Of a DNA stretch of 64,000 nt, positions 27,793 to 52,846 are shown one piece after another (the first letter of the stretch is position 1; each line of letters starts with the position of its first letter). The stretch lies in assembly GCA_035387925.1 (NCBI GenBank), contig DAOOOV010000013.1, positions 182 through 64,181 on the forward strand. The letters are read 5' to 3'. A model generated the notes under the pieces. The model did no database searches. It was not told the DNA's origin and was given only the letters and a program-made list of their open reading frames with translations. The translations under genes were made by a program, and so were the position numbers. Origin of the DNA: Flavobacterium sp. GTDB lineage: Bacteria; Bacteroidota; Bacteroidia; Flavobacteriales; Flavobacteriaceae.

Positions 27793-27820
27793 AGGAGGGT
27801 GTTGGCACTTACAGTTGTCT
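27793..27820 (+). promoter_or_regulatory. Putative ECF-sigma promoter of the Kazal lipoprotein
   Basis: AGGGT-N14-TTGTC, identical in spacing to the motif at 52140-52167. Confidence 0.55.
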
Positions 27821-27847
27821 AAGCTAAGAATCTAAAAAATCAACGAT

Positions 27848-29287
27848 ATGAAAACCATCAAACTTTTACTTTTCTTTGCGGTGTTTGCTACCGTTACCTT
27901 TTATTCGTGTTCGGATTCTGATCCGATCGAAAACAAGACCGCGGCCATCCCGCAAAAAAGTATCGCATTGCGTACGGCAATCAACGAAATCAAGAAAGCC
28001 AACGAAATCAGTGGCAAGCCTGCCAAAGCACAAGCCAGGACAGCGACCAATCCGTTTTGTTTTAATTTTGTTTATCCGCTGACTTTGTCGTTGAGCAACA
28101 ACACCACAATCACCATTACCAGTTTCGAAGGTTTGTTGGATGTACTCGGCAGCGAATCGCCCAGTTTGTACGTGGTTGGAATCGGGTTTCCGTTCCAGGT
28201 GACCTACGGAGGCGCAGTCCACACCATAGCGACCGAAGGTCAGTTTATTGCCCTGATCCAGTATTGTGGTTTCAATACGCTCAATTTTGATTTGTCGCAA
28301 ACGGCTTGTTTTGAATTCGTGTATCCGTTGGGCATCATCGTCGCAGACGACTTGCTCGACGAAGTAAATTCGAATGAAGAATTGCAAAATTATATCAGCC
28401 AGAATAACAATTACGGCATCAATCTCGTCTATCCGGTTTCGGTCAATTATGGCGGTGAAATCGTGGTTATCAATAACATTTATGAGATGTACGAGATGAT
28501 CAACAATTGCGATGTGTGCATCTGTACTTTAGAATATGCACCGGTTTGTGTGCAAACGCCCAACGGTATTGTAGTATACAGCAATTTGTGTTTTGCTATG
28601 TGTGCGGGTTATGACCAAAATGATTTGGTATCTTGTAATCCATCTACCGATTGCAGCATCACCAACGTCCAGGTTACTCCTGGTGTTTGCAATAATGCCA
28701 CTTATGAGCTCACCATCAATTTTACTTACAACAATCCAACGGCGACCAACTTTAATGTGGTGACTGGTTCTGGTATAGTTGTGGGCAATTATAACCTGGC
28801 TGATCTACCCATTACAATCCCCAATTATCCGCTGGCCCTGACTACCGTAGATAACTTGCACATTGAAATGACCGGTGGCTGTGTTGGATATGCGTCATGG
28901 TCAACGCCTAATTGTATCTGCAACTGCCCAACGAATTTTGATCCGGTTTGTGTGCAAACGCCTACAGGACTAGTGCAATACGACAACGCTTGTTTTGCAC
29001 AATGCGCCGGGCACTCACCAAACGATTTTGTTACCTGTGGCGTAGTACCCAATAACTTTGGTACCCAATTGGGCTCTTGCTTCCAGATGAATTACCCTGT
29101 TCAGGTAATGTCAAGCGGCCAGGTCATCACGGTAAACAGCAACGGCGAATTGTTGCAATATTGGAACCCTGCGATGGGTGCCTTACCCAATATGGTCTAT
29201 CCGATAACGGTTACTTTTGGCAACCAAACGATGATCTTTGCCAATGCCGCAGCATTCCAGGCTCAGATTGCCACTTCGTGCAACTAA
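27848..29287 (+). CDS. Cys-rich lipoprotein with YP(I/V) repeats and two Kazal-type domains
   Basis: Lipobox FYSC followed by SDSD; CICTLEYAPVC...YSNLCFAMC...C and CNCPTNFDPVC...YDNACFAQC...C fit the Kazal Cys spacing. Confidence 0.78.
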   Translation: MKTIKLLLFFAVFATVTFYSCSDSDPIENKTAAIPQKSIALRTAINEIKKANEISGKPAKAQARTATNPFCFNFVYPLTLSLSNNTTITITSFEGLLDVLGSESPSLYVVGIGFPFQVTYGGAVHTIATEGQFIALIQYCGFNTLNFDLSQTACFEFVYPLGIIVADDLLDEVNSNEELQNYISQNNNYGINLVYPVSVNYGGEIVVINNIYEMYEMINNCDVCICTLEYAPVCVQTPNGIVVYSNLCFAMCAGYDQNDLVSCNPSTDCSITNVQVTPGVCNNATYELTINFTYNNPTATNFNVVTGSGIVVGNYNLADLPITIPNYPLALTTVDNLHIEMTGGCVGYASWSTPNCICNCPTNFDPVCVQTPTGLVQYDNACFAQCAGHSPNDFVTCGVVPNNFGTQLGSCFQMNYPVQVMSSGQVITVNSNGELLQYWNPAMGALPNMVYPITVTFGNQTMIFANAAAFQAQIATSCN

Positions 29288-29376
29288 AGGAATGAAAGGG
29301 AAATAAATTAGTAGTTATTTTTTATTGCCACACACACTTTGCAGAAAGGGTGTGTGGTAATAAGTTTTTATAAAGG

Positions 29377-29904
29377 ATGCATCAAAGAAACCTACAGCCT
29401 GAAACCCAATTGTGCTCAGAAAGCGTCTTCAAGACGGTTTTTGAGTCGCATTTTAAATTGCTGCGGAATTTCCTGATATTCAAATTTAAGGATGTAGAAA
29501 GGGCAGAGGATACGGCGCAAAATGCCTTTGTCGTGCTTTGGGAAAACTGTGCCATGATCAAGCCAGAACAGGCCAAAAGTTTTCTGTTCACCACCGCGAT
29601 ACGGCTCTCACTGAACCTGATTAAGCACGATAAAGTTGTCCTGAATTTTGAATTGCAATCAAAATCCAACGGCACACACCACGAATCGCCCGAGTTCCTC
29701 TTGCTGGAAAGCGAACTCAAAAAGCGACTCGAAAAAGCCATCAGCGATTTGCCCGAAAAACAGCGTACCGTATTTTTACTGAACCGGTTTGAAAACCAAT
29801 CCTATACCCAAATTGCGGCTTTGCTCGACCTGTCGGTAAAAACTGTAGAAAAAAGGATGCACCTGGCGCTCGTCTCATTGCGTCAGGTCGTCAAAAACGT
29901 TTGA
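29377..29904 (+). CDS. ECF RNA polymerase sigma factor (FecI-like)
   Basis: AEDTAQNAFVVLWEN (region 2) and LPEKQRTVFLLNRFENQSYTQIAALL..SVKTVEKRMH (region 4). Confidence 0.93.
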   Translation: MHQRNLQPETQLCSESVFKTVFESHFKLLRNFLIFKFKDVERAEDTAQNAFVVLWENCAMIKPEQAKSFLFTTAIRLSLNLIKHDKVVLNFELQSKSNGTHHESPEFLLLESELKKRLEKAISDLPEKQRTVFLLNRFENQSYTQIAALLDLSVKTVEKRMHLALVSLRQVVKNV

Positions 29905-29918
29905 CCCAAATAAATGAA

Positions 29919-30836
29919 ATGAAGATGGATAACGCAAACAATGAAAACACATTCCTGGCCGATTGGCTCGACGGTAAAATAACCGACGCCGCTTTGCGCG
30001 AGAAAGTATCGGCTGCCGATTTTGAAGCCTACCTCAAACTGAGGGAAACTTTGGGCTTGTACCAAATCGCCGATCCCGACATGGCGCAACAATACGCCAA
30101 GATAAAAGCCAAACGCATTGCCGCCAACAACGCCAAACCCGTTCGCAAAATAAGGCCTTACGTGTATTTATCGGTCGCGGCGAGCCTGTTGCTGTTTTTT
30201 GGGTTCTACCAGTTTTTCGCGTTTGCCAATCACCTGCAAACCGGTTATGGTGAAACAACTGCTTTGACGTTGGCCGATGGTTCGGTCGTGACACTCAACG
30301 CCCAATCAAAGGTAGATTATCCGCCGCTTTTCAAGTACAATCGCCAACTGCAACTCGATGGCGAGGCTTACTTTGAAGTACAGAAAGGCAGCCAATTCAC
30401 TGTTGCAACGGCGCTCGGCGAAGTAGCCGTCCTGGGTACCAAATTCAATGTCGTCGCGCAAGATGGTTTTTTTGAGGTGGTTTGCTTAGACGGGCGCGTA
30501 AAAGTCACGCACAACCGGCAATCGACGATTCTAACCAAGGGCGAAGCCGTTCGTTTTTTCAAACAAAGACAAGAAGAATGGACGCAAAATAGCAACCGCG
30601 AACCCGATTGGATCGGTGGCGAATCGACCTTTAAAAATACGCCGCTGCAGCAGGTCATCCGGCAGTTTGAAAACCAGTACCATTGTTCTGTACAATATCC
30701 CGAAGCGCTGGGCAACATCCGATTTACGGGAAGTTTTACGCACCGAAATCTTGAAACGGCTTTGCAGTCGATTTGTATCCCGTTGCAATTGCAACACACC
30801 CAAACCGGCAACCGCAAAATTTCGCTGGCGCAATGA
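29919..30836 (+). CDS. FecR family anti-sigma/sensor
   Basis: Single TM, LADGSVVTLNAQS, LDGEAYFEV, VLGTKFNV, C-terminal FTGSF; ATG at 29919 or 29925. Confidence 0.92.
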   Translation: MKMDNANNENTFLADWLDGKITDAALREKVSAADFEAYLKLRETLGLYQIADPDMAQQYAKIKAKRIAANNAKPVRKIRPYVYLSVAASLLLFFGFYQFFAFANHLQTGYGETTALTLADGSVVTLNAQSKVDYPPLFKYNRQLQLDGEAYFEVQKGSQFTVATALGEVAVLGTKFNVVAQDGFFEVVCLDGRVKVTHNRQSTILTKGEAVRFFKQRQEEWTQNSNREPDWIGGESTFKNTPLQQVIRQFENQYHCSVQYPEALGNIRFTGSFTHRNLETALQSICIPLQLQHTQTGNRKISLAQ

Positions 30837-33124
30837 TTCGGTTCTTGTCGATTTTGATGGTACTTTTGACGATTTCGGTCGGCTCGGCGCAGCAGGTTGA
30901 AACGGCTGACATTTCCTACCAGTCTGCCAATCTGAGCAAAGTGCTCGCGGATGCAGAATCGGCTTACCAAATCAAGTATTCCTACATCGACAGCATCGTG
31001 GCGCCTAAAAGCATCACGCTTGCCGCCGGTAAATACACGCCCGATTCGCTTCACAGCCAAATTGCGCAACAAAGTGGGCTTACGATTGTAAAGATCGATT
31101 CTCGTTACTATTCTGTTTACGACGATACACAAACGGTGCGGCAGGAATGGCTCAAGGAAATCCTTGTAGAAGGACTGCTTTCTAAAGGCATCAGCAAAAC
31201 CGGTGAAAAAGTGGTGATTTCCCCGCAAAAACTAGAAGCGTTGCCAGGCGTGACCGATGCCGATATTTTATTTTCGCTCCAACAGTTGCCCGGTGTGAAA
31301 AGCCCCAATGAAACAGCCAGCGGATTGCATGTGCGCGGCGGAACGTCTGACCAGAACCTGATCCTTTGGGACGGCATCCGCATGTACCATCCGGGTCATT
31401 TGTTTGGGATGATTTCTGGTTTCAATCCCAATGCTGTGGATGCGGTGCATTTTTACAACAAGGCTACCGATGCCAGATTCGGGGAACGGATTTCAAGTGT
31501 CATTGATATTAAAACCTCCGACAAAATCCCACAGCAATTCCAGGCCAATGCCGGACTAAACGCACTCAACGGAGATCTTGATGTGCGCGTTCCAATCCTA
31601 AAAGACAAATTGTCCATCGAACTCTCGGGTAGGAAATCATATACAGAGTGGCTGCAGACACCCACGTTTGACGCGTTGGCCAAAAAGGTTTTCCAGCATA
31701 CGAATTTCAAGGATTTCAACAATAGCAATCATTTTGATTTTGAGGATTATTCGGCTAAAGTCAATTACCGTCCTTTTAAAGATACCAAGATTGCATTTAC
31801 TTCAATCCTTATCGACAATTACCTTGATTTCAGTAGTGTTGCGCCAGGCGATGGGCCGCGGAACCAGAGAATGGATATTTTTAATCAGGGTTACAGCGCC
31901 AACTGGAGCCAAAAGTATGGAGCCAAATGGCGCCAGAACGTATTGCTGTATTACTCGGCTTACACCTTCAATTACCTGCGCAGGCAAGACTACACTTTGA
32001 ATCGGTTTGACGAATACGACAAGCGCAACCGCATCACCGATTCTGGGCTTGAGGCCAATTTTAACTATCGTTTCACTTCCAGCCTCCAGCTCGATTTTGG
32101 CTATCAGCATATGGGCAATGACCTTTCGCATTCGTTTACCGCACGCAATCAGGGATTTGAGATCGACCTCGACAACAAACGCCTTCTCAATGTTACCCAA
32201 GTGGGTTATCTACAGGCCAGTTACCATTGGCATCAGTGGGATTTCAGGGCTGGTGCGCGCTACAATTATTATCGCGCGTTGCAGGCCAATAGTGTCGAGC
32301 CGCGCCTGTTTGTGCAAAGACGGTTGGGCAGGCGACTCGTCTGGCAAGCCACTTACGAGAAAAAGAGCCAGATCATGAACCAAATCCGCGAAAGCGTTAC
32401 CAATGAGTTGAGCCTTGAGAATTATGTGTGGTTGCTGTCGGATGGTAAGCAGTATCCGATTCAACGCGCGAGCCAACTCAGCAGCGGGCTGATCTACAAA
32501 ACCAAGTCGTGGCTCATCGATGCTGATGCTTATTACAAACAAACCCAAGGCATCACGTCTTTGGCATTTGGGTCGCTGTACCGTTATGATACTGCCATAC
32601 GAAACGGGAAGAATTTCACCAAGGGAATTGACTTGCTGATCCAGAAGACGGCTGCAGACTGGCGCGCGTGGATCAACTATACGTATCAGGATTCGCAACA
32701 GCGATTCGATGGGTTCAATGGCGATGCTTATTTTGCGTCGAATGCCTCGATTTGGCATGCGTTTAATTTGTCGGTTTACAAAAAATGGAACAGATATGCT
32801 TTGGCTGTCGGCTGGAACTGGCATACCGGAAAACCTTACAGCGTGCTCGATGCCGATGGAAATGTGGTTTCACTCAATAAAGAGCGGCTGCCCCATTATC
32901 ATAGGTTGGATATTTCGGGAACCTATCAATTCCGGGAAGCGAAAAACTGGTCGGGGAAAATCGGGTTTTCTGTGCTCAACGCATACAACCAGCGAATCGT
33001 AATCAGCAAAGAGTATGAAAGAATTACTACAACCATCAACGAAGTACAGGATTTCAGGTACTCCGTCAGGGATTTTTATGCTTTGGGTTTTACGCCGAAC
33101 CTTTTTATTCGCGTCAACCTATAA
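30833..33124 (+). CDS. TonB-dependent receptor with N-terminal STN-like signalling domain
   Basis: Signal peptide, STN-like segment, plug LQQLPGV...VRGGTSDQNLILWDG, beta-barrel, C-terminal GFTPNLFIRVNL; ATG overlaps the fecR stop. Confidence 0.9.
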   Translation: MIRFLSILMVLLTISVGSAQQVETADISYQSANLSKVLADAESAYQIKYSYIDSIVAPKSITLAAGKYTPDSLHSQIAQQSGLTIVKIDSRYYSVYDDTQTVRQEWLKEILVEGLLSKGISKTGEKVVISPQKLEALPGVTDADILFSLQQLPGVKSPNETASGLHVRGGTSDQNLILWDGIRMYHPGHLFGMISGFNPNAVDAVHFYNKATDARFGERISSVIDIKTSDKIPQQFQANAGLNALNGDLDVRVPILKDKLSIELSGRKSYTEWLQTPTFDALAKKVFQHTNFKDFNNSNHFDFEDYSAKVNYRPFKDTKIAFTSILIDNYLDFSSVAPGDGPRNQRMDIFNQGYSANWSQKYGAKWRQNVLLYYSAYTFNYLRRQDYTLNRFDEYDKRNRITDSGLEANFNYRFTSSLQLDFGYQHMGNDLSHSFTARNQGFEIDLDNKRLLNVTQVGYLQASYHWHQWDFRAGARYNYYRALQANSVEPRLFVQRRLGRRLVWQATYEKKSQIMNQIRESVTNELSLENYVWLLSDGKQYPIQRASQLSSGLIYKTKSWLIDADAYYKQTQGITSLAFGSLYRYDTAIRNGKNFTKGIDLLIQKTAADWRAWINYTYQDSQQRFDGFNGDAYFASNASIWHAFNLSVYKKWNRYALAVGWNWHTGKPYSVLDADGNVVSLNKERLPHYHRLDISGTYQFREAKNWSGKIGFSVLNAYNQRIVISKEYERITTTINEVQDFRYSVRDFYALGFTPNLFIRVNL

Positions 33125-33161
33125 AAAAATCCTAACTTTCGGCTGGGATTCGTTTGATTAT

Positions 33162-33539
33162 TTATTTCAGGATGTGCTGGCTTAGAATGCGATACACTTC
33201 ATTGATGTTGTTGCCGCCTTTCCCGAATTGTTTCTTGATGGGCAATTCCTCGTCCTTGATCCAGATTTTGAGTTCGGCATCAAGGTCAAGCAATCCGGCG
33301 CTTTCCTTTGAGAATTTAATGACATTGCCGTAAGGTATTGACAGGTAATCGACCTTTGTTCCTACAAGTTGCTTTTCTACCAATATCAATCGTTTATTGG
33401 TGAAAATGAACATGTCCTTGATTACTTTGTAAGCTTTCTCGATATTCTCGCCATCGATGATGATGGGTTCGAATTCTTTTTTGATGTCGTCGAGGTTGAC
33501 CTCAGAGGCGTTTCCTAAAATGGCGTTGAATATTCCCAT
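33162..33539 (-). CDS. Bacterial PH domain-containing protein (bPH_1/YjqA-like)
   Basis: DMFIFTNKRLILVEKQ...DYLSIPY...ESAGLLDLDAELKIWI. Confidence 0.88.
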   Translation of the reverse strand: MGIFNAILGNASEVNLDDIKKEFEPIIIDGENIEKAYKVIKDMFIFTNKRLILVEKQLVGTKVDYLSIPYGNVIKFSKESAGLLDLDAELKIWIKDEELPIKKQFGKGGNNINEVYRILSQHILK

Positions 33540-33650
33540 GTTGATGTATAATTGGTTTGAGGTTCAAAATTAATTCAAATCGATGGGGAAGCGACAGAAA
33601 TTTTACTATTTTTAACGTATCAACTAAACGCCAATTAAAATTTCTACGCC

Positions 33651-35186
33651 ATGCTCATCAAAATCTTTGGCAGCGCCGTTTTCGGTGTCGAAGCTACCAC
33701 CATCACCATCGAAGTCAACATTGACAAAGGTATCGGGTACCACCTCGTCGGGCTCCCAGACAATGCTATCAAAGAAAGCAGTTACCGCATTGCCGCTGCG
33801 CTCAAGAACAACGGGTTTTCGATGCCCGGAAAAAAAATCACCATCAATATGGCGCCCGCCGATCTCAGAAAGGAAGGTTCGGCCTATGACTTGCCGCTCG
33901 CCATTGGTATCCTTGCCGGCTCGGGACAGATCAAATCCGATGCAGTTGCCGACTACCTCATTATGGGCGAACTCTCGCTAGACGGCAGCCTGCAGCCCAT
34001 CAAAGGCGCGCTGCCCATCGCCATCAAGGCCAAACACGAAGGATTCAAGGGATTTTTCCTGCCCATGCAGAATGCCAAGGAAGCGGCCATCGTCGCCGGA
34101 TTAGACGTTTATGGCGTCGAGAACCTGCAGGAAGTAATTTCATTTTTCGACGGCAAATCCACGATCGAGCCCTTAGTAATCGACACCCGCGCCGAATTCT
34201 ACAAAACGATTGATTGCTGCGAGAACGATTTCTCGGATGTCAAAGGGCAGGAAAGCATCAAGCGCTGTATGGAAATTGCTGCAGCGGGCGGGCACAACAT
34301 CATCTTGGTGGGGCCGCCGGGCGCCGGGAAAACCATGCTCGCCAAACGCTTGCCCGGCATATTGCCTCCCATGACGTTGCGCGAGGCGCTCGAAACCACC
34401 AAAATCCACAGCGTGGCCGGAAAATTAAAAGAAGTGGGGCTCATGAACCAACGCCCGTTTCGCAGTCCGCACCATACCATATCCAATGTCGCGCTCGTAG
34501 GCGGCGGCAGCTACCCGCAACCCGGTGAAATCTCTATGGCGCACAACGGCGTGCTGTTTCTGGATGAACTGCCCGAGTTCAAACGCGAAGTACTCGAGGT
34601 GATGCGCCAACCGCTCGAAGACCGAGAAGTCACGATTTCACGCGCCAAATTCACCGTAACTTATCCGTCGTCGTTTATGCTCGTAGCCAGCATGAACCCA
34701 AGCCCGGGCGGTTTCTTTAACGATGCCGATGCGCCGGTGACCAGTTCGCCGCACGAGATGCAACGGTATTTGAACAAAATTTCGGGGCCGTTGCTCGACC
34801 GCATCGACATTCATATAGAAGTAACGCCGGTGCCATTTGAGAAACTGTCTGATGAACGCCAGTCAGAAAACAGCGCACAAATCCGCGAAAGGGTTACCAA
34901 AGCCAGAGAAATCCAGTCCAATCGGTTTGCAGAAATGGAGTCGGTCAACTATAATGCGCAAATGGGCAGCAAATTGATCCGTGACCATTGCAGGCTCGAC
35001 ACGGTTTCACTACAATTGCTCAAAACCGCTATGGAACGGCTTAACCTGTCGGCACGTGCCTATGACAGGATTTTAAAGGTGTCCCGCACAATCGCCGACC
35101 TCGAAGGCAGTGAAAATATCGGACCCAACCACATCGGCGAGGCCATCCAATACCGCAGTCTGGATCGCGAAGGCTGGCTCGGCTGA
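33651..35186 (+). CDS. comM: YifB/ComM family Mg-chelatase-like AAA+ ATPase
   Basis: [62 protein letters not shown]. Confidence 0.93.
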
Positions 35187-35231
35187 CCAAAAACATCAGT
35201 TATCCATTATCAATTAAATTAGACGTGTCCC

Positions 35232-35311
35232 TGCGGGCCGGGCTGTACGCTCTATCTTTCGCGGCTTGCTGCGCTGCGCCGCAAAAGGATGCCGCTGCCA
35301 TCCCTCACGCG
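35232..35311 (+). repeat. Flavo-1-like structured intergenic repeat
   Basis: GCGGGCCGGGCTGTACGCTCTATCTTT-hairpin-AAAAGGATGCCGCTGCCATCCCTCACGC. Confidence 0.75.
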
Positions 35312-35399
35312 CATCCGTATGTTAATAGGCATTTTAGGACACGATTTTGGTTCGGGTTTTCAGAATCAATTCGTATTTTTGGAATCCTAATACCAACTC

Positions 35400-36158: not shown

Positions 36159-36232
36159 ATTAACGCAATGTTAATTTTAGATGACATACCCCTGAAATTA
36201 TTACATTTACCCACTATTAAAAAACAACCATA

Positions 36233-39712: not shown

Positions 39713-39799
39713 GGAGCCGGGAACCTGCTGTCCGCTCTATCTTTTGTCCGCTAAAGAAGCGGAACAAAAGGATGCCGCGTCCATCAGGGCTAGGGCTCC
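39713..39799 (+). repeat. Flavo-1-like structured intergenic repeat
   Basis: GCTGTCCGCTCTATCTTTTG-(CCGCT..AGCGG)-CAAAAGGATGCCGCGTCCATC within a GGAGCC/GGCTCC closing stem. Confidence 0.75.
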
Positions 39800-43853: not shown

Positions 43854-43866
43854 TTTTGTAGGATGC

Positions 43867-43945
43867 CGCGAGAAGGATGGCAGCGGCTATCCTTTTGTTT
43901 TTTTCTTTAGAAAACAAAAGATAGTAGCGGACAGCCTGACCCGCA
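43867..43945 (-). repeat. Flavo-1-like structured intergenic repeat
   Basis: Reverse complement: TGCGGGTCAGGCTGTCCGCTACTATCTTTTG...CAAAAGGATAGCCGCTGCCATCCTTCTCGC. Confidence 0.75.
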
Positions 43946-43991: not shown

Positions 43992-44549
43992 TTAATAGTA
44001 AAGCGTGACTTTCAAATCAAATTCATCATAAATGGTACGGTCGCCGAGGTCGTCAAAGAAGCTGCCAGAGCCATATTGGATACCATATTTGGTACGGTCT
44101 ACGGTGAATTCGGTCGTAGCGGTTTTGCCTTTGAACGACAAATCGAACTTAACCGGGTTGGTTTTGCCCTTGATGGTAAGGTCGGCGGTAATGGTGTACA
44201 GGTTTTGCTTTTTGAGTGCGATGGTTTTGAAGGTGAGTGTGGCGGTCTTGAACTCATCGGTGTTGAAGAAATCGGGGGATTTGAGGTGGCCTTCGAGCTT
44301 GGCTTTGTCTTTACCGGTGTTATCGGTGTTGGAGAGTGTGGTCATGTTGGCAGTGAATGTGCCGCCGGTAAGTTTCTTTTTGGTAAACGTGAGCGAGCCG
44401 TCCTTGAAGTTGATCGTGCCGCTGTGTTCGCCGGTGACCTTTTTGCCGGTCCAGGAAATCAGGCTTTTTTTGGTATCGATCTTTTTAATTTGTGCCGAGA
44501 GCGTACCGAAGCAAAGGAGCAGTAGCGGTACAAAGAGTATTTTTTTCAT
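43992..44549 (-). CDS. YceI family periplasmic lipid/polyisoprenoid-binding protein
   Basis: SWTGKKVTGEHSG, LEGHLKSPDFF, VDRTKYGIQYGSGSFF. Confidence 0.93.
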   Translation of the reverse strand: MKKILFVPLLLLCFGTLSAQIKKIDTKKSLISWTGKKVTGEHSGTINFKDGSLTFTKKKLTGGTFTANMTTLSNTDNTGKDKAKLEGHLKSPDFFNTDEFKTATLTFKTIALKKQNLYTITADLTIKGKTNPVKFDLSFKGKTATTEFTVDRTKYGIQYGSGSFFDDLGDRTIYDEFDLKVTLYY

Positions 44550-44670: not shown

Positions 44671-44692
44671 TCATAGCAATTTAACCCATAGA

Positions 44693-45262
44693 TTAGAACT
44701 GCAAAGTTGCGGTAATGTCGAAGTTGTCGTTGATGGCTTTGTCGCCAAGGTTGTCAAAGAAGCTTCCTGATCCGTATTTGATGTCGAATTTGGTACGGTC
44801 GATGCTTACTTTAGCAGTAGCGGTGTTTCCTTTTACCGTTACATCGAAAGTTACCGGATTGGTGGTTTCCTTGATAGTCAAATCGGCCGTTACGGTGTAA
44901 GTGCCATTGCCTTTGTCGGCGATTTTTTTGAAGACCAATTTAGAAGTTGGGAACTTTTCTGTCCCAAAGAAATCAGGTGATTTCAAGTGGCCTTCTAATT
45001 TTTCCTTGCCTTCGCCTGCTTTAAGGTCGGTTACGGTGATCGATGCCATGTCTACGGTGAAGGTTCCGCCGGTTAATTTTTTCCCGCTGAAAACCAGTGC
45101 ACCTTCTTTGAGGCTTACATTTCCTGAATGTTGTCCGGTTACTTTTTTACCTACCCATTCTAATTTGCTTTTGGCAACGTCTACTTTTTTTGTTTGCGCC
45201 GATACGGCTGCGGTTGAAAAAGCTACCAATAAGGCGATTGCGATTGTTTTTAAATTTTTCAT
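44693..45262 (-). CDS. YceI family protein (paralogue)
   Basis: EWVGKKVTGQHSG, LEGHLKSPDFF, IDRTKFDIKYGSGSFF. Confidence 0.93.
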   Translation of the reverse strand: MKNLKTIAIALLVAFSTAAVSAQTKKVDVAKSKLEWVGKKVTGQHSGNVSLKEGALVFSGKKLTGGTFTVDMASITVTDLKAGEGKEKLEGHLKSPDFFGTEKFPTSKLVFKKIADKGNGTYTVTADLTIKETTNPVTFDVTVKGNTATAKVSIDRTKFDIKYGSGSFFDNLGDKAINDNFDITATLQF

Positions 45263-45311
45263 TGTTGAAATTGAATTTGGTTACTACTGATTATTAAGGA
45301 TTAAATGATAC

Positions 45312-45767: not shown

Positions 45768-45784
45768 ATCTCCAAGTGTAAAAA

Positions 45785-45827
45785 TTGTAGGTACAAATGT
45801 ACAATGTTTTTTTATTTGTATATACAA
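45785..45827. promoter_or_regulatory. Putative MarR operator pair overlapping the marR -7 element
   Basis: TTGTAGGTACAA (45785) and TTGTATATACAA (45816); TACATTTG on the minus strand at 45794-45801. Confidence 0.6.
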
Positions 45828-45905
45828 GTGTTTATTAAATTTTTGTTAAACTACCCGCAACGGTTTTAAGATTGTTTAATTTTAGTGGGGCTTAAAATAA
45901 ACGAT

Positions 45906-46415
45906 ATGGTAAGAGTGATTGTGTGGCTTTTTTCGCTTTCGGTAGCTGTTTCGGCTAACGCGCAGCAACCCTTAAAAGTCTACGTAAAGAACGGCGTAAC
46001 GGTTAAATCTTATGATTTTAACGAATTAGCACCCTTACTCAACAAACAGAATGATACCACTTATGTCGTTAATTTTTGGGCCACCTGGTGCAAACCCTGT
46101 GTTGAAGAGTTGCCCCATTTTGAGAAGCTGCATGCGAATTTCAAGGATCAAAAAGTAAAAGTACTTTTGGTGAGCCTCGATTTACCCAAGCAAGTAGAAA
46201 GCAACCTGATTCCATACATTAGAAAGAAGCAATTGCAATCGTATGTGGTGCATCTAGGCGATCCTGACATGAACAGTTGGATCAATAAAGTGGATCCGCA
46301 ATGGTCGGGCGCGATTCCCGCGACGATCATCTATAATGGGCGTAAAAGGAAATTCTACGAGCAAAGCTTCTCGTATGAACAACTCCAAACCGAACTAGAA
46401 AAAATCAAAAATTAA
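45906..46415 (+). CDS. TlpA-like thiol:disulfide oxidoreductase
   Basis: VVNFWATWCKPCVEELP, WSGAIPAT; signal peptide. Confidence 0.9.
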   Translation: MVRVIVWLFSLSVAVSANAQQPLKVYVKNGVTVKSYDFNELAPLLNKQNDTTYVVNFWATWCKPCVEELPHFEKLHANFKDQKVKVLLVSLDLPKQVESNLIPYIRKKQLQSYVVHLGDPDMNSWINKVDPQWSGAIPATIIYNGRKRKFYEQSFSYEQLQTELEKIKN

Positions 46416-46432
46416 CCATTAATTACATTACT

Positions 46433-47044
46433 ATGAAAAGATTAAAAATGATTGCCGTAGCACTCGTGGTTGTTACCTTAAGTGCCTTTACGCCAAAAAC
46501 GGCGCCGACGGGTTACAAAATAGGCGACGTGGCTACCGATTTTAGCCTCAAAAACATTGACGGCAGGATGGTTTCGCTCAAAGATTACCCAAACGCTAAA
46601 GGATTTATCGTCGTTTTTACCTGCAACCATTGCCCATTTTCTAAGGCATATGAAGACCGAATTGTGGCGCTCGATAAGCAATACAGCGATTTGGGTTATC
46701 CAGTCATCGCCATCAACCCCAACAACCCGGCCAAACAACCCGAGGATTCGTTTGAGAACATGCGCCGCAGGGCTAAAGAAAAAGCGTTTACATTCCCGTA
46801 TCTGTTCGATGAAGGACAGAAAATTTACCCACAATACGGCGCCACCAAAACGCCACATGTGTATGTATTGCAAAAATCTGCCAAAGGCAACATCGTGAAA
46901 TACATCGGTGCGATAGATGACAACTACGACGATGTGTCTGCAGTAAAAGAAAAATATGTAGAAAATGCGGTGAATGCGCTGCTTGAAAACAAGGAAATTT
47001 CGGTAAAGGAAACCAAAGCCATCGGCTGTTCTATTAAAGCTTAA
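46433..47044 (+). CDS. Exported thioredoxin-like/AhpC-TSA redoxin
   Basis: VFTCNHCPF, YGATKTPH, C-terminal AIGCSIK. Confidence 0.88.
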   Translation: MKRLKMIAVALVVVTLSAFTPKTAPTGYKIGDVATDFSLKNIDGRMVSLKDYPNAKGFIVVFTCNHCPFSKAYEDRIVALDKQYSDLGYPVIAINPNNPAKQPEDSFENMRRRAKEKAFTFPYLFDEGQKIYPQYGATKTPHVYVLQKSAKGNIVKYIGAIDDNYDDVSAVKEKYVENAVNALLENKEISVKETKAIGCSIKA

Positions 47045-47047
47045 CTT

Positions 47048-47365
47048 ATGAATTTAGACCAAAATGATTGGCTCAGCCAACTAGAATCCGACCCAAATGC
47101 TGTCATTCTTGACGTGCGTACCCAAAGTGAATGGGAAGAAGGCATCATCCCCAACGCCATCCATATCGACATCTATAAAGGACAAGGTTTCATTTATGAA
47201 GTAGACGCGCTAGACAAGTCAAAGAATTATTACGTGTATTGCAAAGCCGGCGGACGAAGCGCCCAAGCCTGTAGTATCATGAACCAATTGGGATTTGAAA
47301 ATACCTACAATTTATTGGGCGGTATCATGGAGTGGGACGGCGAAGTGATCGCTCCCGAGTCCTGA
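47048..47365 (+). CDS. Rhodanese-like domain protein
   Basis: LDVRT..EW, YVYCKAGGRSAQAC, YNLLGGIMEW. Confidence 0.92.
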   Translation: MNLDQNDWLSQLESDPNAVILDVRTQSEWEEGIIPNAIHIDIYKGQGFIYEVDALDKSKNYYVYCKAGGRSAQACSIMNQLGFENTYNLLGGIMEWDGEVIAPES

Positions 47366-47809
47366 GCGGTCTAACGAATGTCCCCGTAATTTCCTACGGA
47401 TGGCGTAGTAAAAATACTTGAGTTGCTCTTTTCTCGATCTCCCGGCGCGAACAACGAGCGTCTTTTCACCGATAAGGCCAATCCTAACCTGATAACCATA
47501 AGACTTGTAAGAAATAGCCATGCCAAAGGCAACAGCAATCAACGCAAGCAATAGCAGCTTAAGCAGCAAATCGAGTTGCAGATCGTACACCAGCAACCAG
47601 GTAAAAACGAAGGCGGTGAGCAAGAACAGTAAGTTTAGCTCGAACCGCCTTTTTTTTATGAGGTTGATTTTCTTGATTTCGTCTATTTTGATTACACTAG
47701 AATCTTTACCATTGTGTACGACTACACGGCTATCGGACACAATCCCAATAGCGTTATTGAGGTGGTGTTTGTTGGTTTTGGTTGCGGTCATATTTGAAAT
47801 CTTTACCAT
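47312..47809 (-). CDS. Hypothetical membrane protein (two TM segments)
   Basis: 165 aa ORF with a hydrophobic hairpin; its 3' end overlaps the convergent rhodanese gene. Confidence 0.55.
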   Translation of the reverse strand: MVKISNMTATKTNKHHLNNAIGIVSDSRVVVHNGKDSSVIKIDEIKKINLIKKRRFELNLLFLLTAFVFTWLLVYDLQLDLLLKLLLLALIAVAFGMAISYKSYGYQVRIGLIGEKTLVVRAGRSRKEQLKYFYYAIRRKLRGHSLDRSGLGSDHFAVPLHDTAQ

Positions 47810-48115
47810 TTCAAATACGAGTTTGCGGATACTTTGGATTTAGCTATGGTCGATTTATTTTTTAGTAAAATCGAGGCCCAAAAATCCCCCCGAATTATTT
47901 GACCTGGCAGCAATGCTACCGGGAAAAACGCTTGTCGAAGAAAATGAGGCCGACATCACTCTGGCCGAAACGACCTGCAACAATATTATTTTTGACGCCA
48001 TCCAAGCCGACGCAGCCTAAACGCAACTGTGTTTGTTGATTGAATCCCGCAACCTCTAAAGTACTTTTTTTTAGCTCAAACTGCGACCCGATATTGCCGG
48101 GAAAGGAAGTCTGAT

Positions 48116-50623
48116 TTAAAACTGCAAACGCAGCCCCAAATTAGGGCTAAAGCCGAGTGCATAAGTGTCCACGCTTTCAATCGTATTGCGTTGTAGGTTC
48201 ACGCGATAATACCGATTCACCTGATTGTCCTGGTCTAAAAGATTCCATAGGGAAAGGCTTGTGGTCAGGGCTGTGTTCGCGTTGAAACTCCAGGACCGCG
48301 AGGCCGAAAAATTGACCTGGAAAAAATCGTTGAGCCGCGCCGAATTGGCCTCGGTATAAGATATCTTCGGGCTCGCCGGATTGACCGGATCCACAATAAT
48401 TCCTGCAGGCGGCGTATAAAGCCTGCCCGTATGCCATTTGGCGCCGAGCGCGAGTTTGAGTTTGCCGGATTCATAAGTTCCGGCCCAACCAACCGCATGC
48501 GAGATGGTGGTATTGTTAGGGAACTCGGCGGGCGAAAGGCGATCGAATCGGTACTGGTTGTTATTGAACGCGTAGGAGATCCAGGTGTAAAATTTCGGGA
48601 AACTTTTCTGCAGTAGCACTTCTGTGCCCCAAATACGGTAGTCGCCGGTTAATTCTGCGAACTCATATTGATTTTGAAAACCTTGGCTTTTGCTCGAAAT
48701 TCCTTGGTTTTTTTTATAGAAATTGTCCACAGAGAGCAACCAGCGGTTATTCGAATAAGATACACCAAATGAGAGTTGCCCGCTTTTCTGTAGCGGAATG
48801 TCGCCACCATTGGCCAAAGCCCAACGTCTTTTTTCGATACCCAAAAAGTCCTGCTGCAATTCAATGACTTGCGAGAGCGATTGGCTTTTGGCTTCGGCGA
48901 GCAGTGAAAGTGTCCAGTGTTGGGTTATTTTTTGGCTTACAGACAGCCGCGGCTCTAGCCTAAATCGTTTGATTTTTTCAAAATAATTGCCGCGCAGTCC
49001 TAATTGGAGTTGCGTTTTTTCATCGCAGCTTTTGTACTGGCTTTCGGCGACAACGGCATGCGTACGCGATAGTTGACGGTCAATGCTAGACAACGTAGGA
49101 TTGTCTATTTGACTCATGTCCTTAATCTGGATTTCATCCAATTGGTAGCCGATTGCCAACGAATATTTTTGACCCAGGACAAAACCCTCGCGAAGCTTAA
49201 ATCCTTGGTTAAAAACACGGTTTTGCTGCCTGGTTTTACGGGTATTACCAGCTTGGTTTTCAGCGTCGAGCTCGTACCACGAAAAGTAGGCCTGTAATTG
49301 GGTCTGATGGCGCTGGTTCCATTGCGATTGCCAATGCAGGCTGGAACCAAAGTTCTTTTGGGAGAGGTAACTGTTTTTTTCTAAAAATCCGCTCTGCTGG
49401 ATGAAATCTACCTGGTTCTCTAAGCCGATGCCATCAATGATGAGTTCATGTTTTTCGCCGATTTTCTGGTGGTATTGCAGCGAAAAATCATAAAAGTAAA
49501 AATCCCGGTTGGCTCCCACGGGCACAGTTTGGTCTTCATTGAGATCGGTTACGATATTGCTGCCGAAAACCCGATTTTCATATGCCTTGAATGCAGGGGT
49601 CTTGACGATGTCGGTGAAGGTACGCCGACCCGCAGCCTGTAGCGTAGAACGGTTGGAGAGCTTCACCTTTGAAAAGAAATTCGCGCTGATCATGTCTACC
49701 GCTACCGCATTGTAACAACTGTCTATCGATTGGGTATGCGACGACAGGTCTACGAGTGATGACACGCTTTCGCCGAAGAACGCCGAACTCCCGTTCTTAG
49801 AAATCCTGATTTTCGTGGTGACCATGGGGTTGAACGCAGAAATCAATCCAAAGAAATGGCTCGTCTGGAACATTCGGATGCCATTCCATAAAAAAAGGTT
49901 TTGATCGTGCGTGCCGCCGCGTACGTTGAGGTTCGACACCGTTTCGTCGATGCTCACCACGCCGGGTAATTGGTGCATGGTCTGGAGCACATCTGGCTCG
50001 GTCAAACCAGGCAATATACCAAATTTCCCTGGTTTTACTGTGACGGTTCCCGACGGACTTTTGCTGATCCCACTAGCCAGGTAGCGTTGCGTCTCGATGG
50101 TGGTGAGCTGTTGCGCAATCACTTTGAGCGCAATCTGAGGGCATTCGGGCACATACAAATCCTGCGGACTCAGTATTTTTGGCGTGTATCCTTGGTGCCG
50201 GATGCTGATGGTATTGGGTGTGAGTACCGGCAATTCAAAATAACCATTGGTGTTGGAGGCGGTTGTGATACCCAACGATGCAATGCTAATCGCGGCATGT
50301 TCAATCGGCGCACCCGTTTCGGCGTCGATGAGGTAGCCACACAAGGGCTTGTCCATTTTTTTGTCGTTGTAGACCGAGTAGTACTGCTGCGAGATTGCGG
50401 CAATCTTGAGGCGGGTGTTTTTTTGGATATACTCTAGTTTTTCCTGTAGGCCAAGTGTCGGTGCAGGCGGTAGCAATCGGTAAACGGCCAACTCTTCATC
50501 GATATAGCTAAAGCGCACGCCATGCTGCTGCGCCATCCCGCCTAGGATACTTTTTAACGGCTGGGTTTGCTGCGCCTGGCACAACAGAGAAAAAAGCAGC
50601 AATATGTACAGAAAATAGCGCAC
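48116..50623 (-). CDS. TonB-dependent receptor with STN-like and carboxypeptidase-regulatory-like N-terminal domains
   Basis: HGVRFSYIDE (STN-like), LCGYLIDAETGAPIEHA..NTNGYF, plug LPGV...VRGGTHDQNLFLWNG, C-terminal GFSPNLGLRLQF. Confidence 0.9.
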   Translation of the reverse strand: MRYFLYILLLFSLLCQAQQTQPLKSILGGMAQQHGVRFSYIDEELAVYRLLPPAPTLGLQEKLEYIQKNTRLKIAAISQQYYSVYNDKKMDKPLCGYLIDAETGAPIEHAAISIASLGITTASNTNGYFELPVLTPNTISIRHQGYTPKILSPQDLYVPECPQIALKVIAQQLTTIETQRYLASGISKSPSGTVTVKPGKFGILPGLTEPDVLQTMHQLPGVVSIDETVSNLNVRGGTHDQNLFLWNGIRMFQTSHFFGLISAFNPMVTTKIRISKNGSSAFFGESVSSLVDLSSHTQSIDSCYNAVAVDMISANFFSKVKLSNRSTLQAAGRRTFTDIVKTPAFKAYENRVFGSNIVTDLNEDQTVPVGANRDFYFYDFSLQYHQKIGEKHELIIDGIGLENQVDFIQQSGFLEKNSYLSQKNFGSSLHWQSQWNQRHQTQLQAYFSWYELDAENQAGNTRKTRQQNRVFNQGFKLREGFVLGQKYSLAIGYQLDEIQIKDMSQIDNPTLSSIDRQLSRTHAVVAESQYKSCDEKTQLQLGLRGNYFEKIKRFRLEPRLSVSQKITQHWTLSLLAEAKSQSLSQVIELQQDFLGIEKRRWALANGGDIPLQKSGQLSFGVSYSNNRWLLSVDNFYKKNQGISSKSQGFQNQYEFAELTGDYRIWGTEVLLQKSFPKFYTWISYAFNNNQYRFDRLSPAEFPNNTTISHAVGWAGTYESGKLKLALGAKWHTGRLYTPPAGIIVDPVNPASPKISYTEANSARLNDFFQVNFSASRSWSFNANTALTTSLSLWNLLDQDNQVNRYYRVNLQRNTIESVDTYALGFSPNLGLRLQF

Positions 50624-50625
50624 CC

Positions 50626-51528
50626 TTATGGCAACGGATTAAGGCTAATGGTATTTCCCGATTGTTTCAAATCGAGGTGGTAGGTGACCGCAATAATTTT
50701 GAGCGCCGCATCCAGGTCATTGCCCGGAATCGAGCCAGAAAACAATTGTTGGGTTTGCAACGCACTGTCAATAGAAACGTCATATTGCCTCTCCAATTCG
50801 GCGAGGACGGCGGTAAAAGAGGCGTTTTCAAAAAGCAGTTCGTAGCGCGTCCATTCGGGTGCGATGGCTTTTGTAGTAGCTAAAATCCTGTCGGATTCGT
50901 TAATGACGATGCGTTGTCCAGGAAGAATTATTTGTTGCGTCGTTGCTGAGGCTACGCTGACTTTGCCTTCGTAACAGGTTACTTCAAAACGGTTGTCCCT
51001 GGCCTTGACGTTGAATTGGGTGCCCAGCACCGTGACCGAGCCCAGGTTGGTTTCGACCGTGAATTTTTGCCCTTTGGCTACCTTGAAATAGGCTTCACCT
51101 TGAAGTGAAACCTCGCGGTTGCTACTCCAGTCCCAGGATTTGAAACTTGCCTGCGAACCGGCATTGAGCAAGACCTGCGATTGGTCGGGTAACGAGAAGG
51201 CATACATTTCTCCATTGCCGGCGGCATGCCTGGTGGGCTGTAAAAGATAAAAGCCGATCCCAAGCAATACTACAATCATTGCGGCAGCAGCAATCCATGT
51301 TTTGCGGTAGAACGGGATGACTTTGACCGGCGCGATTTTTTCGTGGGCGATAACGTGCGCCAGTATAGCATCATCGGCGGTGCGAGGCGACTGCAGTTTT
51401 TCAAAGTTTTGTTTCATTCGCAGCAACGTTGGGTATTCGGGACTGCGCTCGAGTTGCTGCAGTTCGGCCGCACTCAGGCTTTGGTCGAGCCAGCGGGCCA
51501 AAAACGTATCGTCTTTATAATTATCCAT
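50626..51528 (-). CDS. FecR family anti-sigma/sensor
   Basis: DDTFLARWL, single TM, LPDQSQVLLNAGS, LQGEAYFKV, VLGTQFNV; ATG at 51528. Confidence 0.92.
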   Translation of the reverse strand: MDNYKDDTFLARWLDQSLSAAELQQLERSPEYPTLLRMKQNFEKLQSPRTADDAILAHVIAHEKIAPVKVIPFYRKTWIAAAAMIVVLLGIGFYLLQPTRHAAGNGEMYAFSLPDQSQVLLNAGSQASFKSWDWSSNREVSLQGEAYFKVAKGQKFTVETNLGSVTVLGTQFNVKARDNRFEVTCYEGKVSVASATTQQIILPGQRIVINESDRILATTKAIAPEWTRYELLFENASFTAVLAELERQYDVSIDSALQTQQLFSGSIPGNDLDAALKIIAVTYHLDLKQSGNTISLNPLP

Positions 51529-51572
51529 GGGGATCGTTGATTTCTTAAAGGACAAAATGATTTGTATTTACC

Positions 51573-52088
51573 CTACCTAAAGTGGTCTATTTGTTCGCGC
51601 ATCGATAGCAAGGCACCGTGGATACGCTTTTCTACTGCTTTTTGGCTAATGCCAAGCATTTCGGCAATCTCGCGGTATTTCTTGCCTTCGATGCGGTTGA
51701 GTAACAAAGCGGTGCGTTGCGCCTGGGTGAGGCTGGCGATGGCTTTGTCGAATTTATCGCGAAACTCGGTTTCTTCCATAAGGTATTCGGGGCTGGCGTA
51801 ATCGGTGGTGTCGTTGGGTTTGCTGTCGCGGTATTTCAATTCGACTTTTTGGTAGGCCAGCTCGTTGAGGCTGGCGTTGTTGGCCACGCGGTAGAGAAAT
51901 GATTTGGGGAACCGCACTTCGGCACAATGTTGCCAGAGTTTGATAAAGGCATCCTGCGCGATATCATCTGCGAGATTGTCGCTCCCAAATTTAAAGTACA
52001 GGTAATTGCGCAGCGAATAGAAATTTTTTTTAAAAAACTGCGTAAAAACAATTTCGGTGCAAATGCCTTGTTTTTCAGGCTCTTCCAT
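51573..52088 (-). CDS. ECF RNA polymerase sigma factor (paralogue of 29377)
   Basis: ADDIAQDAFIKLWQHC and LTQAQRTALLLNRIEGKKYREIAEMLGISQKAVEKRIH. Confidence 0.93.
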   Translation of the reverse strand: MEEPEKQGICTEIVFTQFFKKNFYSLRNYLYFKFGSDNLADDIAQDAFIKLWQHCAEVRFPKSFLYRVANNASLNELAYQKVELKYRDSKPNDTTDYASPEYLMEETEFRDKFDKAIASLTQAQRTALLLNRIEGKKYREIAEMLGISQKAVEKRIHGALLSMREQIDHFR

Positions 52089-52139
52089 GAGTTGTTCTGT
52101 TTTATCTGTTGGTGAAATTACTAAAAAGTTAATTTTCTG

Positions 52140-52167
52140 GGTAGGGTAGATGATAAAAACTTTGTCC
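52140..52167 (+). promoter_or_regulatory. Putative ECF-sigma promoter
   Basis: AGGGT-N14-TTGTC, same geometry as 27793-27820. Confidence 0.55.
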
Positions 52168-52229
52168 TATCAGCAAAGTTTAACCAAGCACTCTTTTCAA
52201 AGCGTTTAAAACGTCTTAAAAATTATAGC

Positions 52230-52349
52230 ATGATGATCTGGAAATCCAACAATACGCGCACGCCAAAGTACTATTGCCTGCAGGCGGTTATTTGGTTGTT
52301 TATTGTGGTGCTGGTGTGGCTTATCGACAAGCGATTCGAAATTATTTAA
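52230..52349 (+). CDS. Candidate 39-aa single-TM small protein (not in the ORF track)
   Basis: MMIWKSNNTRTPKYYCLQAVIWLFIVVLVWLIDKRFEII; A/T-rich initiation context; lies between the putative ECF promoter and the lipoprotein gene. Confidence 0.35.
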   Translation: MMIWKSNNTRTPKYYCLQAVIWLFIVVLVWLIDKRFEII

Positions 52350-52372
52350 TATAAATCTTTAATAACTTAACT

Positions 52373-52846
52373 ATGAAAACCTTCAAAATCTTACCTGTCC
52401 TCGCTGCTTTGTTTTTGCTTTCGGCTTCTTGCCAATCAGATGACAGCAACAACTCGCCGACTTTTCCGCAAAACTTACAGGCCATCAACAATGTAAACCA
52501 ATCGGTACAGCAGGGTGCGTGGCGCATTACTTATTATTTTGATACCGACAGCGATGAGACCTCACGCTACACCAATTACACTTTTACATTTGGTTCGGGC
52601 AATGTGCTTACCGCGAGCAATGGCACCAATACTTACACGGGCACTTGGCTGGTCACCAACAGCAACAGCAATGACGACAATCCGCAAAGCGACCTCGATT
52701 TCAATATCGCTTTCTCAAGTCCGGCAAACTTTCAGGATCTTACCGATGACTGGGATATTGTAAGTTACACCGCGACGCGCATCGAACTTATCGACATCAG
52801 CGGCGGTAATGGCGGGACCGACCATCTGGTTTTTGAAAAAAATTAA
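52373..52846 (+). CDS. Hypothetical lipoprotein (lipocalin-like beta-barrel predicted)
   Basis: Lipobox LSASC followed by QSDDS; GAWRITYY, YTFTFG, LTDDWDIV, LVFEK pattern. Confidence 0.78.
   Translation: MKTFKILPVLAALFLLSASCQSDDSNNSPTFPQNLQAINNVNQSVQQGAWRITYYFDTDSDETSRYTNYTFTFGSGNVLTASNGTNTYTGTWLVTNSNSNDDNPQSDLDFNIAFSSPANFQDLTDDWDIVSYTATRIELIDISGGNGGTDHLVFEKN

Follow-up and report, generated by a model that had tools for sequence, protein, structure and literature searches.

Two cassettes for cell-surface signaling, each containing genes for an extracytoplasmic function (ECF) sigma factor, a FecR-type anti-sigma factor, a TonB-dependent receptor (TBDR), and a lipoprotein, lie in a 64,000-nucleotide (64-kb) stretch of Flavobacterium sp. 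DNA (contig DAOOOV010000013.1; the whole stretch is called the window below), and the question that they raise is which promoters their sigma factors read. A sequence-only reading of the region had noted that the upstream regions of the two lipoprotein genes, lipo1 and lipo2, share the pattern AGGGT-N14-TTGTC, and it had proposed that the two copies are cognate ECF promoters that drive an interchangeable lipoprotein payload. Both strings were present where that reading had placed them, namely, AGGAGGGT at 27793-27800 with TTGTCT at 27815-27820 and GGTAGGGT at 52140-52147 with TTGTCC at 52162-52167. Comparison with related loci widened the pattern to GTAGGGT-N15-TGTY and indicated that such sites are quite likely to be cognate ECF promoters read by the adjacent sigma factor. 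The promoter part of the proposal was supported by a promoter-like two-part motif with a fixed spacer, a consistent orientation, and conserved positions beside sigma orthologues; the interchangeable payload was not. The inventory of sites also had to be extended, since a site in front of fecR2-TBDR2 had been missed, as had the apparently derived gene order of cassette 1, which contains no internal promoter. The three sites are as follows.

27793..27820, plus strand: site 1, putative ECF promoter of lipo1; -35 block GGAGGGT at 27794-27800, -10 block TTGTCT at 27815-27820
52140..52167, plus strand: site 2, putative ECF promoter facing away from sigma2, toward a small open reading frame (ORF) and lipo2
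51550..51577, minus strand: site 3, putative ECF promoter of fecR2-TBDR2; -35 block GGTAGGGT at 51577-51570, -10 block TTTGTCC at 51556-51550

On both strands of the window there were three exact matches to AGGGT-N14-TTGTC, all of them within the two cassettes. The number expected from dinucleotide-preserving shuffles was 0.04 per window, and none of 100 shuffles had three or more matches. When one mismatch was allowed, just one further match appeared (2.9 were expected in total), so the exact copies stand out; with the family pattern described below, no site was found elsewhere in the window beyond the three. The third exact copy, on the minus strand at 51574-51551, lies at the sigma2/FecR2 junction. 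The extended form GGTAGGGTA...TTTGTCCT is common to it and the site at 52140, and with their flanks the two read GGTAGGGTAaATacAaAtcatTTTGTCCT and GGTAGGGTAgATgaTaAaaacTTTGTCCT, respectively. The TAG within site 3 is the stop codon of sigma2 (51575-51573, minus strand), which thus sits inside the -35 block, and the last C of the site is 22 nucleotides (nt) from the ATG of FecR2 (51528).

The definition of the motif was based on the window and preceded the retrieval of all comparison loci. With a sigma alignment, 80 loci were retrieved from genomes, and with sigma1, 69 were retrieved from metagenomes; 109 related Flavobacteriaceae loci from many genera were scanned for the motif. In 79 loci, a 6-mer enrichment made without prior assumption on the 280 nt 5' of sigma ranked GGTAGG, GTAGGG, and TAGGGT at the top, each present in 49 to 54 of the loci and 16- to 24-fold enriched. 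About two-thirds of the 306 occurrences of GTAGGG in the loci had TGTT downstream at a single fixed offset and at no other offset. The resulting family consensus was gGTAGGGT(a/t)ttt ... (c/t)TGT(T/C)tta, that is, AGGGT-N15-TGTY.

Sites matching this consensus occupied two characteristic positions. The first was on the sigma strand just 3' of the sigma gene, with the FecR ATG following 4 to 30 nt later (61 of the 105 loci that could be assessed). The second was on the other strand some 50 nt 5' of sigma, ahead of a lipoprotein gene (52 of 103 loci). From the background density, 0.01 sites would be expected in each such stretch. Across the family, the sites lay 4 to 60 nt upstream of start codons and were invariably oriented toward the downstream gene, and the genes behind them included 63 FecR genes and 71 genes for lipoproteins of one family. 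Furthermore, the TAG of GTAGGGT served as the sigma stop codon in 32 of 62 loci (near position 7520 in loci of the series L004-L080), so that the stop codon is part of the putative fecR -35 block (G-TAG-GGT) and coding and promoter constraints overlap there. A two-part motif with a fixed spacer aimed at the downstream gene, as is expected of an ECF-type promoter, was found at these sites. Among the 47 loci carrying both canonical sites, TGT(T/C) ended in the same base at the two sites in every case (37 T/T and 10 C/C). The variable columns of the two sites were also more similar within a locus than between loci (0.514 versus 0.439), a difference reached by none of 5,000 permutations. Candidate sigma columns separating TGTC-type from TGTT-type loci were identified and were not used, since they are confounded by phylogeny.

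Beyond these two positions, about 54 more sites, against about 15 expected from base composition, preceded other nearby genes, mostly for lipoproteins or secreted proteins, including copies of the lipoprotein family, a Tat-signal Rieske protein, an ankyrin-repeat protein, a cytochrome-c-like lipoprotein, and an OB-fold protein. Immediately 5' of sigma and on its strand, nine loci had a GGGT...TGTT site of ECF type (about 65 to 80 nt upstream in L033, L035, L039, and L044), and by their sequence these are predicted to be autoregulated variants of the layout. One locus, from Spongiivirga citrea (L071, 3902-11916), carried seven family-type sites within 14 kb, some preceding two small transposase-like or helix-turn-helix-like ORFs, and so has an unusually large putative local regulon. 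In some 10 to 12 loci (L004-L017), an accessory gene set lay 1 to 6 kb upstream of sigma, with several genes having sites of their own; it comprised genes for a Tat-signal Rieske protein, a cytochrome-c-like lipoprotein, a YceI-like protein, an OB-fold (tRNA_anti-like) protein, an ankyrin-repeat protein, and a putative outer-membrane barrel. This gene content hints at a redox-active or metal-related substrate.

The genes beside the sites encode a recognizable signaling system. Both sigma factors matched the Pfam models Sigma70_r2, Sigma70_r4_2, and Sigma70_ECF, both anti-sigma factors matched FecR (E value of 1e-18) and FecR_C (1e-10 to 1e-12) and had one hydrophobic segment seen by eye, and both receptors had a Pfam Plug domain. 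The components of the two cassettes, previously taken to be paralogues, were indeed paralogous, with identities of 43% for the sigma factors, 33% for the FecR proteins, and 27% for the receptors. Among 60 full-length loci, sigma, FecR, and TBDR were each present in 58 or 59, and the lipoprotein family was encoded on the opposite strand in 53; the remaining neighbors were housekeeping genes kept by synteny, and no conserved regulator gene other than sigma and FecR was found in the neighborhood. The receptors have an N-terminal extension of about 80 amino acids that had no match to the Pfam STN model, and a profile search of the receptor N terminus against the PDB reached the PupA signaling domain only at an E value of 0.31. 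An AlphaFold model of TBDR2 residues 17-100 (84 amino acids; mean predicted local distance difference test score [pLDDT] of 83.6) matched the signaling domains of FoxA, PupB (complexed with PupR), FecA, PupA, FpvA, and HasR, with template modeling (TM) scores of 0.65 to 0.71 and a probability of 1.0. By its modeled fold, as opposed to a sequence model, TBDR2 is thus predicted to have an N-terminal signaling domain of the STN type ahead of the plug. Because a sigma-FecR-TBDR trio occurs together with this receptor signaling-domain fold, the trio is a cell-surface signaling system of the FecIRA type.

Neither sigma factor is a member of the FecI equivalog family (NF041727), in which they scored 65.8 and 67 bits against the 260 required, or of TIGR02985 (Bacteroides expansion family 1), their best NCBIfam match, at 112.7 and 109.1 bits against a cutoff of 126.4. 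Judging from these scores, they are relatives of both families that lie outside the curated thresholds. The combination of FecR and TBDR with no SusD-type gene would fit ECF239 as described previously (PMC7826278). Two cysteines are also invariant in the sigma family (C10 and C55 of sigma2, in and before region 2), and they could be a redox or metal-binding feature.

Cassette 2 has the common gene layout of the family and comprises the following features in addition to sites 2 and 3.

48116..50623, minus strand: TBDR2, TonB-dependent transducer with an N-terminal signaling domain (predicted from a model), a CarboxypepD_reg-like domain, a plug, and a barrel
50626..51528, minus strand: FecR2 anti-sigma factor, probable ATG at 51528
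51573..52088, minus strand: sigma2, ECF sigma factor of 171 amino acids with Pfam regions 2 and 4
52113..52120, minus strand: TAATTTCA, probable housekeeping (sigma-A type) -7 box for sigma2, about 24 nt before the ATG, predicted from the sequence
52230..52349, plus strand: small membrane-like ORF of 39 amino acids in the lipo2 leader
52373..52846, plus strand: lipo2, lipoprotein of 157 amino acids, lipobox SASC followed by QSDD, lipocalin-like 8-stranded barrel in the model
52873..52896, plus strand: terminator-like hairpin 3' of lipo2

Sigma2 is 95% identical to its counterpart in genome UBA7665. The canonical layout also occurs in the cultured relatives Flavobacterium agri MAH-1 (L003), F. 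psychrotolerans RB1R5 (L008), and F. paronense CECT 8460 (L012), and the system is carried by the complete genome Pontimicrobium CP178208 as well. A putative -7 box of the TAATTTCA type precedes sigma2 and recurs in relatives, for which reason the sigma gene of the common layout is probably not autoregulated. The form TAnnTTTG was present upstream of sigma in just 17 of 60 loci, and the variant TAATTT[CA]A was more common, recurring 25 to 35 nt upstream of the sigma ATG in many related loci; a standard sigma-70 promoter scan is uninformative in Bacteroidota. The leader between site 2 and lipo2 is 205 nt long, and an Rfam search of it gave no match. Similar small membrane-like ORFs occur in L001 (38 amino acids) and L003 (about 40 amino acids), which suggests that the 39-amino-acid ORF at 52230-52349 encodes a real small protein.

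Cassette 1 is arranged differently, with all of its features on one strand.

27725..27756, plus strand: intrinsic-terminator-like hairpin (14-bp stem, then a T-run) closing the upstream gene, just 5' of site 1
27848..29287, plus strand: lipo1, Cys-rich lipoprotein of 479 amino acids, lipobox FYSC followed by SDSDP
29322..29369, plus strand: hairpin with a T-run between lipo1 and sigma1 (terminator, attenuator, or element of the 5' untranslated region)
29377..29904, plus strand: sigma1, ECF sigma factor of 175 amino acids with Pfam regions 2 and 4
29925..30836, plus strand: FecR1 anti-sigma factor, start ATG at 29919 or 29925
30833..33124, plus strand: TBDR1, TonB-dependent receptor with an N-terminal extension, its ATG overlapping the FecR1 stop codon (ATGA)

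The hairpin at 27725..27756 precedes site 1 and thus sets lipo1 apart as a new transcription unit; it and the hairpin at 52873..52896 are strong putative terminators that flank the proposed transcription units. The FecR1 ATG is at most about 20 nt from the sigma1 stop codon, which leaves no space for a promoter, and no motif site was found in this gap or in the 3' end of sigma1. The hairpin at 29322-29369 has a predicted folding energy of -25.1 kcal/mol (z score of -5.1) and lies only 13 nt from the sigma1 ATG. Seven sigma1-type loci retained hairpin and U-run, and 6 of 17 pairs had compensatory changes, with both sides altered. The loci of close sigma1 orthologues with enough flanking sequence (L082, L085, and L089; 77 to 83% identity) retained the gene order of cassette 1 and had AAG(T/G)AGGGTG..AGTTGTCT(T/A)AG 27 to 29 nt 5' of the lipo1 orthologue. 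In sigma1-like marine loci of lower identity (43 to 52%), the layout was the canonical divergent one, with the lipoprotein gene opposite in strand to sigma, two sites, and a -10 block of TTGTCTTA, and on this comparison cassette 1 is best read as a derived rearrangement that has lost the sigma-fecR promoter.

In the mechanism that these arrangements suggest, and for which the family provides the model of signal transfer, the occupied receptor would signal to FecR, and FecR would free or activate the sigma factor. The sigma factor would then direct RNA polymerase to GTAGGGT-N15-TGT(C/T), in which a -35-like block and a -10-like block are separated by the fixed spacer, and the outcome would be more receptor, anti-sigma factor, and surface lipoprotein or lipoproteins. 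We infer that the adjacent sigma factor reads the motif, that transcription starts at these sites, and that the genes behind them are induced in this way. The ancestral layout, kept by cassette 2, would have two ECF promoters, one overlapping the sigma stop codon and serving fecR-TBDR and the other lying some 50 nt 5' of sigma on the other strand and serving the surface lipoprotein, with the sigma gene itself under a promoter of housekeeping type. The lipoprotein gene of cassette 1 would have been relocated upstream on the same strand, leaving a single ECF promoter before lipo1, after which come the conserved hairpin and then sigma1-fecR1-TBDR1. For the lipoproteins, a role in capturing ligand at the cell surface together with the receptor is probable.

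The two lipoproteins were described in the sequence-only reading as unrelated payloads with acidic residues after the lipobox cysteine. The acidic residues are there (CSDSDP in lipo1 and CQSDDS in lipo2), and a direct BLAST comparison of lipo1 with lipo2 detected no similarity; the claim of unrelatedness was nevertheless not borne out, as the two proteins are homologous to different parts of a canonical lipoprotein of about 340 amino acids. Clustering of all proteins encoded downstream of the sites placed lipo1 and lipo2 in one family of 71. The N-terminal part of mature lipo1 aligned with the N-terminal region of the canonical protein, which consists of repeated CF.(V/Y)P modules (E value of 4e-13, 27% identity over 161 amino acids), and lipo2 aligned with its C-terminal lipocalin-like domain of about 110 amino acids (2e-17). 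Because they match the N- and C-terminal parts of the same protein, lipo1 and lipo2 are assigned by homology to two nonoverlapping modules of one modular lipoprotein family, whose larger relatives (500 to 600 amino acids) hold up to four lipo2-type domains. The model of lipo2 was an 8-stranded barrel with an N-terminal helix (pLDDT of 79.5, with a core above 90). Its top Foldseek matches were all lipocalin-like and all weak (E values of at least 1e-3, TM scores of 0.38 to 0.50); the Pfam model Lipocalin_4 matched a related 340-amino-acid partner just at an E value of 0.26 and did not match lipo2 itself.

All 71 family members had an N-terminal cysteine, and 58 of the 71 had at least two acidic residues at positions +2 to +7. 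The Bacteroidetes lipoprotein export signal of Capnocytophaga, Bacteroides, and Flavobacterium johnsoniae has the consensus QKDDE, SDDDD, or SDDFE (PMC5080379); lipo1, lipo2, and the family fit this signal and are predicted to be surface lipoproteins. Lipo1 and lipo2 also conform to the rule of a polar residue directly after the lipobox cysteine and two or more acidic residues at +2 to +6. Lipo1 had no Pfam match. Its residues from about 226 to 262 and from 355 to 393 form two repeats of C-x-C-x3-[YF]-x-P-V-C-V-Q-T-P-x-G-x-V-x-Y-x-N-x-C-F-A-x-C-A-G, and marine relatives (e.g., L101) have up to four such Cys-rich repeats. A Kazal-type reading of the repeats, made by eye from the cysteine pattern, was discarded, with no Pfam match even at an E value of 10. 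Most plausibly, the lipoprotein would be a surface ligand-binding partner working with the receptor.

Several other explanations of the motif have to be weighed against its recognition by the adjacent sigma factor. A chance resemblance of two upstream regions was a concern, as the pattern had been picked after viewing just two short regions; this explanation is already refuted by the third exact copy in the window and by the independent recurrence in the 109 loci fetched after the pattern was defined, and its probability is negligible. A real motif could also be read by another DNA-binding regulator or by an alternative sigma factor encoded elsewhere, and a number of observations either favor such a reader or otherwise weigh against the adjacent sigma factor, whose recognition of the sites is argued from sequence comparison. 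The consensus gGTAGGGT ... (c/t)TGT(T/C) departs from the canonical ECF signature, with neither AAC in the -35 block nor CGT in the -10 block. The agreement in the T/C position is confounded by relatedness, the C-type loci belonging to only two or three clades, and six loci bear an extra site of the other type and hence hold both TGTT and TGTC sites. About 40 to 50% of the related loci have no site under the strict pattern; these may have diverged or may be differently wired. In addition, transcription of sigma1 beyond the conserved hairpin at 29322-29369 is hard to account for, the DNA belongs to an uncultured Flavobacterium whose sequence was encountered in metagenomes of wastewater and activated sludge only, and the public RNA data searched for start sites contained a few short contigs at a depth of 1 to 12 and without 5'-end information. 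Another reader would, on the other hand, have to account for a motif that accompanies the sigma gene in more than 100 loci of many genera at fixed positions, overlaps its stop codon in 32 of them, and is asymmetric and two-part with a single fixed spacer of promoter length. It would also have to account for the covariation of the two sites within a locus and for a neighborhood in which sigma and FecR are the only conserved regulators. We therefore regard a reader encoded elsewhere as quite improbable and favor the adjacent sigma factor.

If the adjacent sigma factors do read the sites, two further questions concern how the cassettes are wired. Sigma1 and sigma2 might each recognize all three promoters, in which case either input would induce both lipoproteins and fecR2-TBDR2. 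Mutual recognition is plausible because the three sites have the identical core AGGGT-N14-TTGTC and because the putative -35-reading helices in region 4 of the sigma factors, which are 43% identical overall, are nearly the same (S-x-K-x-V-E-K-R-x-H); both sigma factors also fall within TGTC-type clades. Each lineage nevertheless has flanks of its own, AAG.AGGGTG..AGTTGTCT.AG for the sigma1 type and GGTAGGGT(A/T)..(T/C)TGTC for the sigma2 type, and these could give discrimination, so that a cross-wired regulon is possible but is not the outcome that we would expect. The second question is whether cassette 1 is a single autoregulated operon, with the lipo1 promoter feeding sigma1-fecR1-TBDR1 by partial read-through of the hairpin, which would act as an attenuator setting the ratio of lipoprotein to regulators. 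The absence of a site in the sigma1 3' end and the short sigma1-FecR1 gap, the mere 13 nt between hairpin and sigma1 ATG, the compensatory changes that conserve the hairpin with its U-run, and the nine other loci with an ECF-type site directly upstream of sigma, by which autoregulated variants exist, all speak for this arrangement. Set against them, the hairpin resembles a strong terminator that would starve sigma1 of transcript, and a weak housekeeping promoter, TAAGTTTT at 29361-29368, may overlap it; the chance that cassette 1 is one operon appears close to even, falling slightly short of it. On a still bolder and rather unlikely view, the modular lipoprotein, with its CF.(V/Y)P modules and one to four lipocalin-like barrels, would represent an unrecognized class of surface ligand-capture partners for SusD-less TonB-dependent transducers of Flavobacteriaceae. 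In this genome, the ancestral protein would have been split between the two cassettes, and, with one core promoter serving both sigma factors, the two inputs would be cross-wired and together restore the complete set of partners.

The cassettes can be compared with known systems. FecI-FecR-FecA of Escherichia coli and the Pseudomonas systems FoxIRA, PupIRB, FpvIR-FpvA, and HasISR likewise have an ECF sigma factor, a single-pass FecR-type anti-sigma factor, and a transducer with the signaling-domain fold. In the Fec system, as probably in the common layout here, the sigma factor drives transport genes and is not autoregulated. The cassettes differ from these systems in their Bacteroidota host, the added conserved surface-lipoprotein partner, an anti-sigma gene placed behind a putative sigma-dependent promoter, the promoter consensus GTAGGGT-N15-TGTY, and sigma factors that score far under the FecI equivalog cutoff (66 to 67 versus 260 bits). 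Canonical ECF promoters are of the -35 GGAAC/-10 CGTC type with a spacer of about 16. The sites described here share with them the asymmetry, the division into two blocks, and a fixed spacer of similar length, and their GTC resembles CGTC, whereas the -35 block GTAGGGT has no AAC and the -10 block is TGTT in most relatives. From the same phylum are the ECF/anti-sigma/SusC-like trans-envelope signaling systems of Bacteroides polysaccharide utilization loci (ECF10, now ECF239/ECF240; PMC7826278), which share the sigma-FecR-TBDR logic. The best NCBIfam match of the sigma factors here is the Bacteroides expansion family TIGR02985, with scores below its cutoff. In contrast to those loci, the cassette neighborhood contains no SusD-like gene or glycoside hydrolases, and the partner belongs to a different lipoprotein family. 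The pairs SusCD and BtuB-BtuG resemble the cassettes in that a lipoprotein with an export signal is encoded beside, and coregulated with (putatively here), a TonB-dependent transporter. The lipoprotein here has CF.(V/Y)P modules and lipocalin-like barrels, in place of the TPR-like fold of SusD and the beta-propeller of BtuG.

FecI-like sigma factors are overrepresented among the ECF sigma factors that fail promoter prediction (Todor 2020, PMC7776599), no motif was known for any Bacteroides thetaiotaomicron ECF sigma factor as of Ryan 2020, and no member of ECF240 has been studied experimentally (Casas-Pastor 2021, PMC7826278). A literature search found no description of the GTAGGGT-N15-TGTY motif, the ECF Hub logos and the supplements of Casas-Pastor 2021 being outside its scope; one match, a dCas12f-sigmaE system, was set aside as different and promoter independent. 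What is new, and well supported, is a promoter consensus and a regulon layout for an uncharacterized flavobacterial branch of FecI-like signaling whose lipoprotein partner is unstudied. The general picture of cell-surface signaling is left unchanged by what is a fairly ordinary regulatory element. Little is known of the promoters that FecI-like ECF sigma factors use in Bacteroidota, and a clean, testable consensus is now supplied that would permit regulon prediction from sequence alone in a family widespread among Flavobacteriaceae, that points to a conserved, uncharacterized surface lipoprotein as part of an uptake system, and that could furnish parts for regulated expression systems in flavobacteria.

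The window contains further features outside the cassettes. Four matches to the Rfam Flavo-1 RNA (RF01705) were above the gathering threshold, three of them on the minus strand (13755-13895, 35232-35327, and 39717-39795) and one on the plus strand (43860-43945). Two tandem YceI-like genes on the minus strand (43992-44549 and 44693-45262) lie beside a MarR-family regulator gene between the two cassettes; in the window, no promoter site precedes them, and YceI-like genes recur near the system in other loci.

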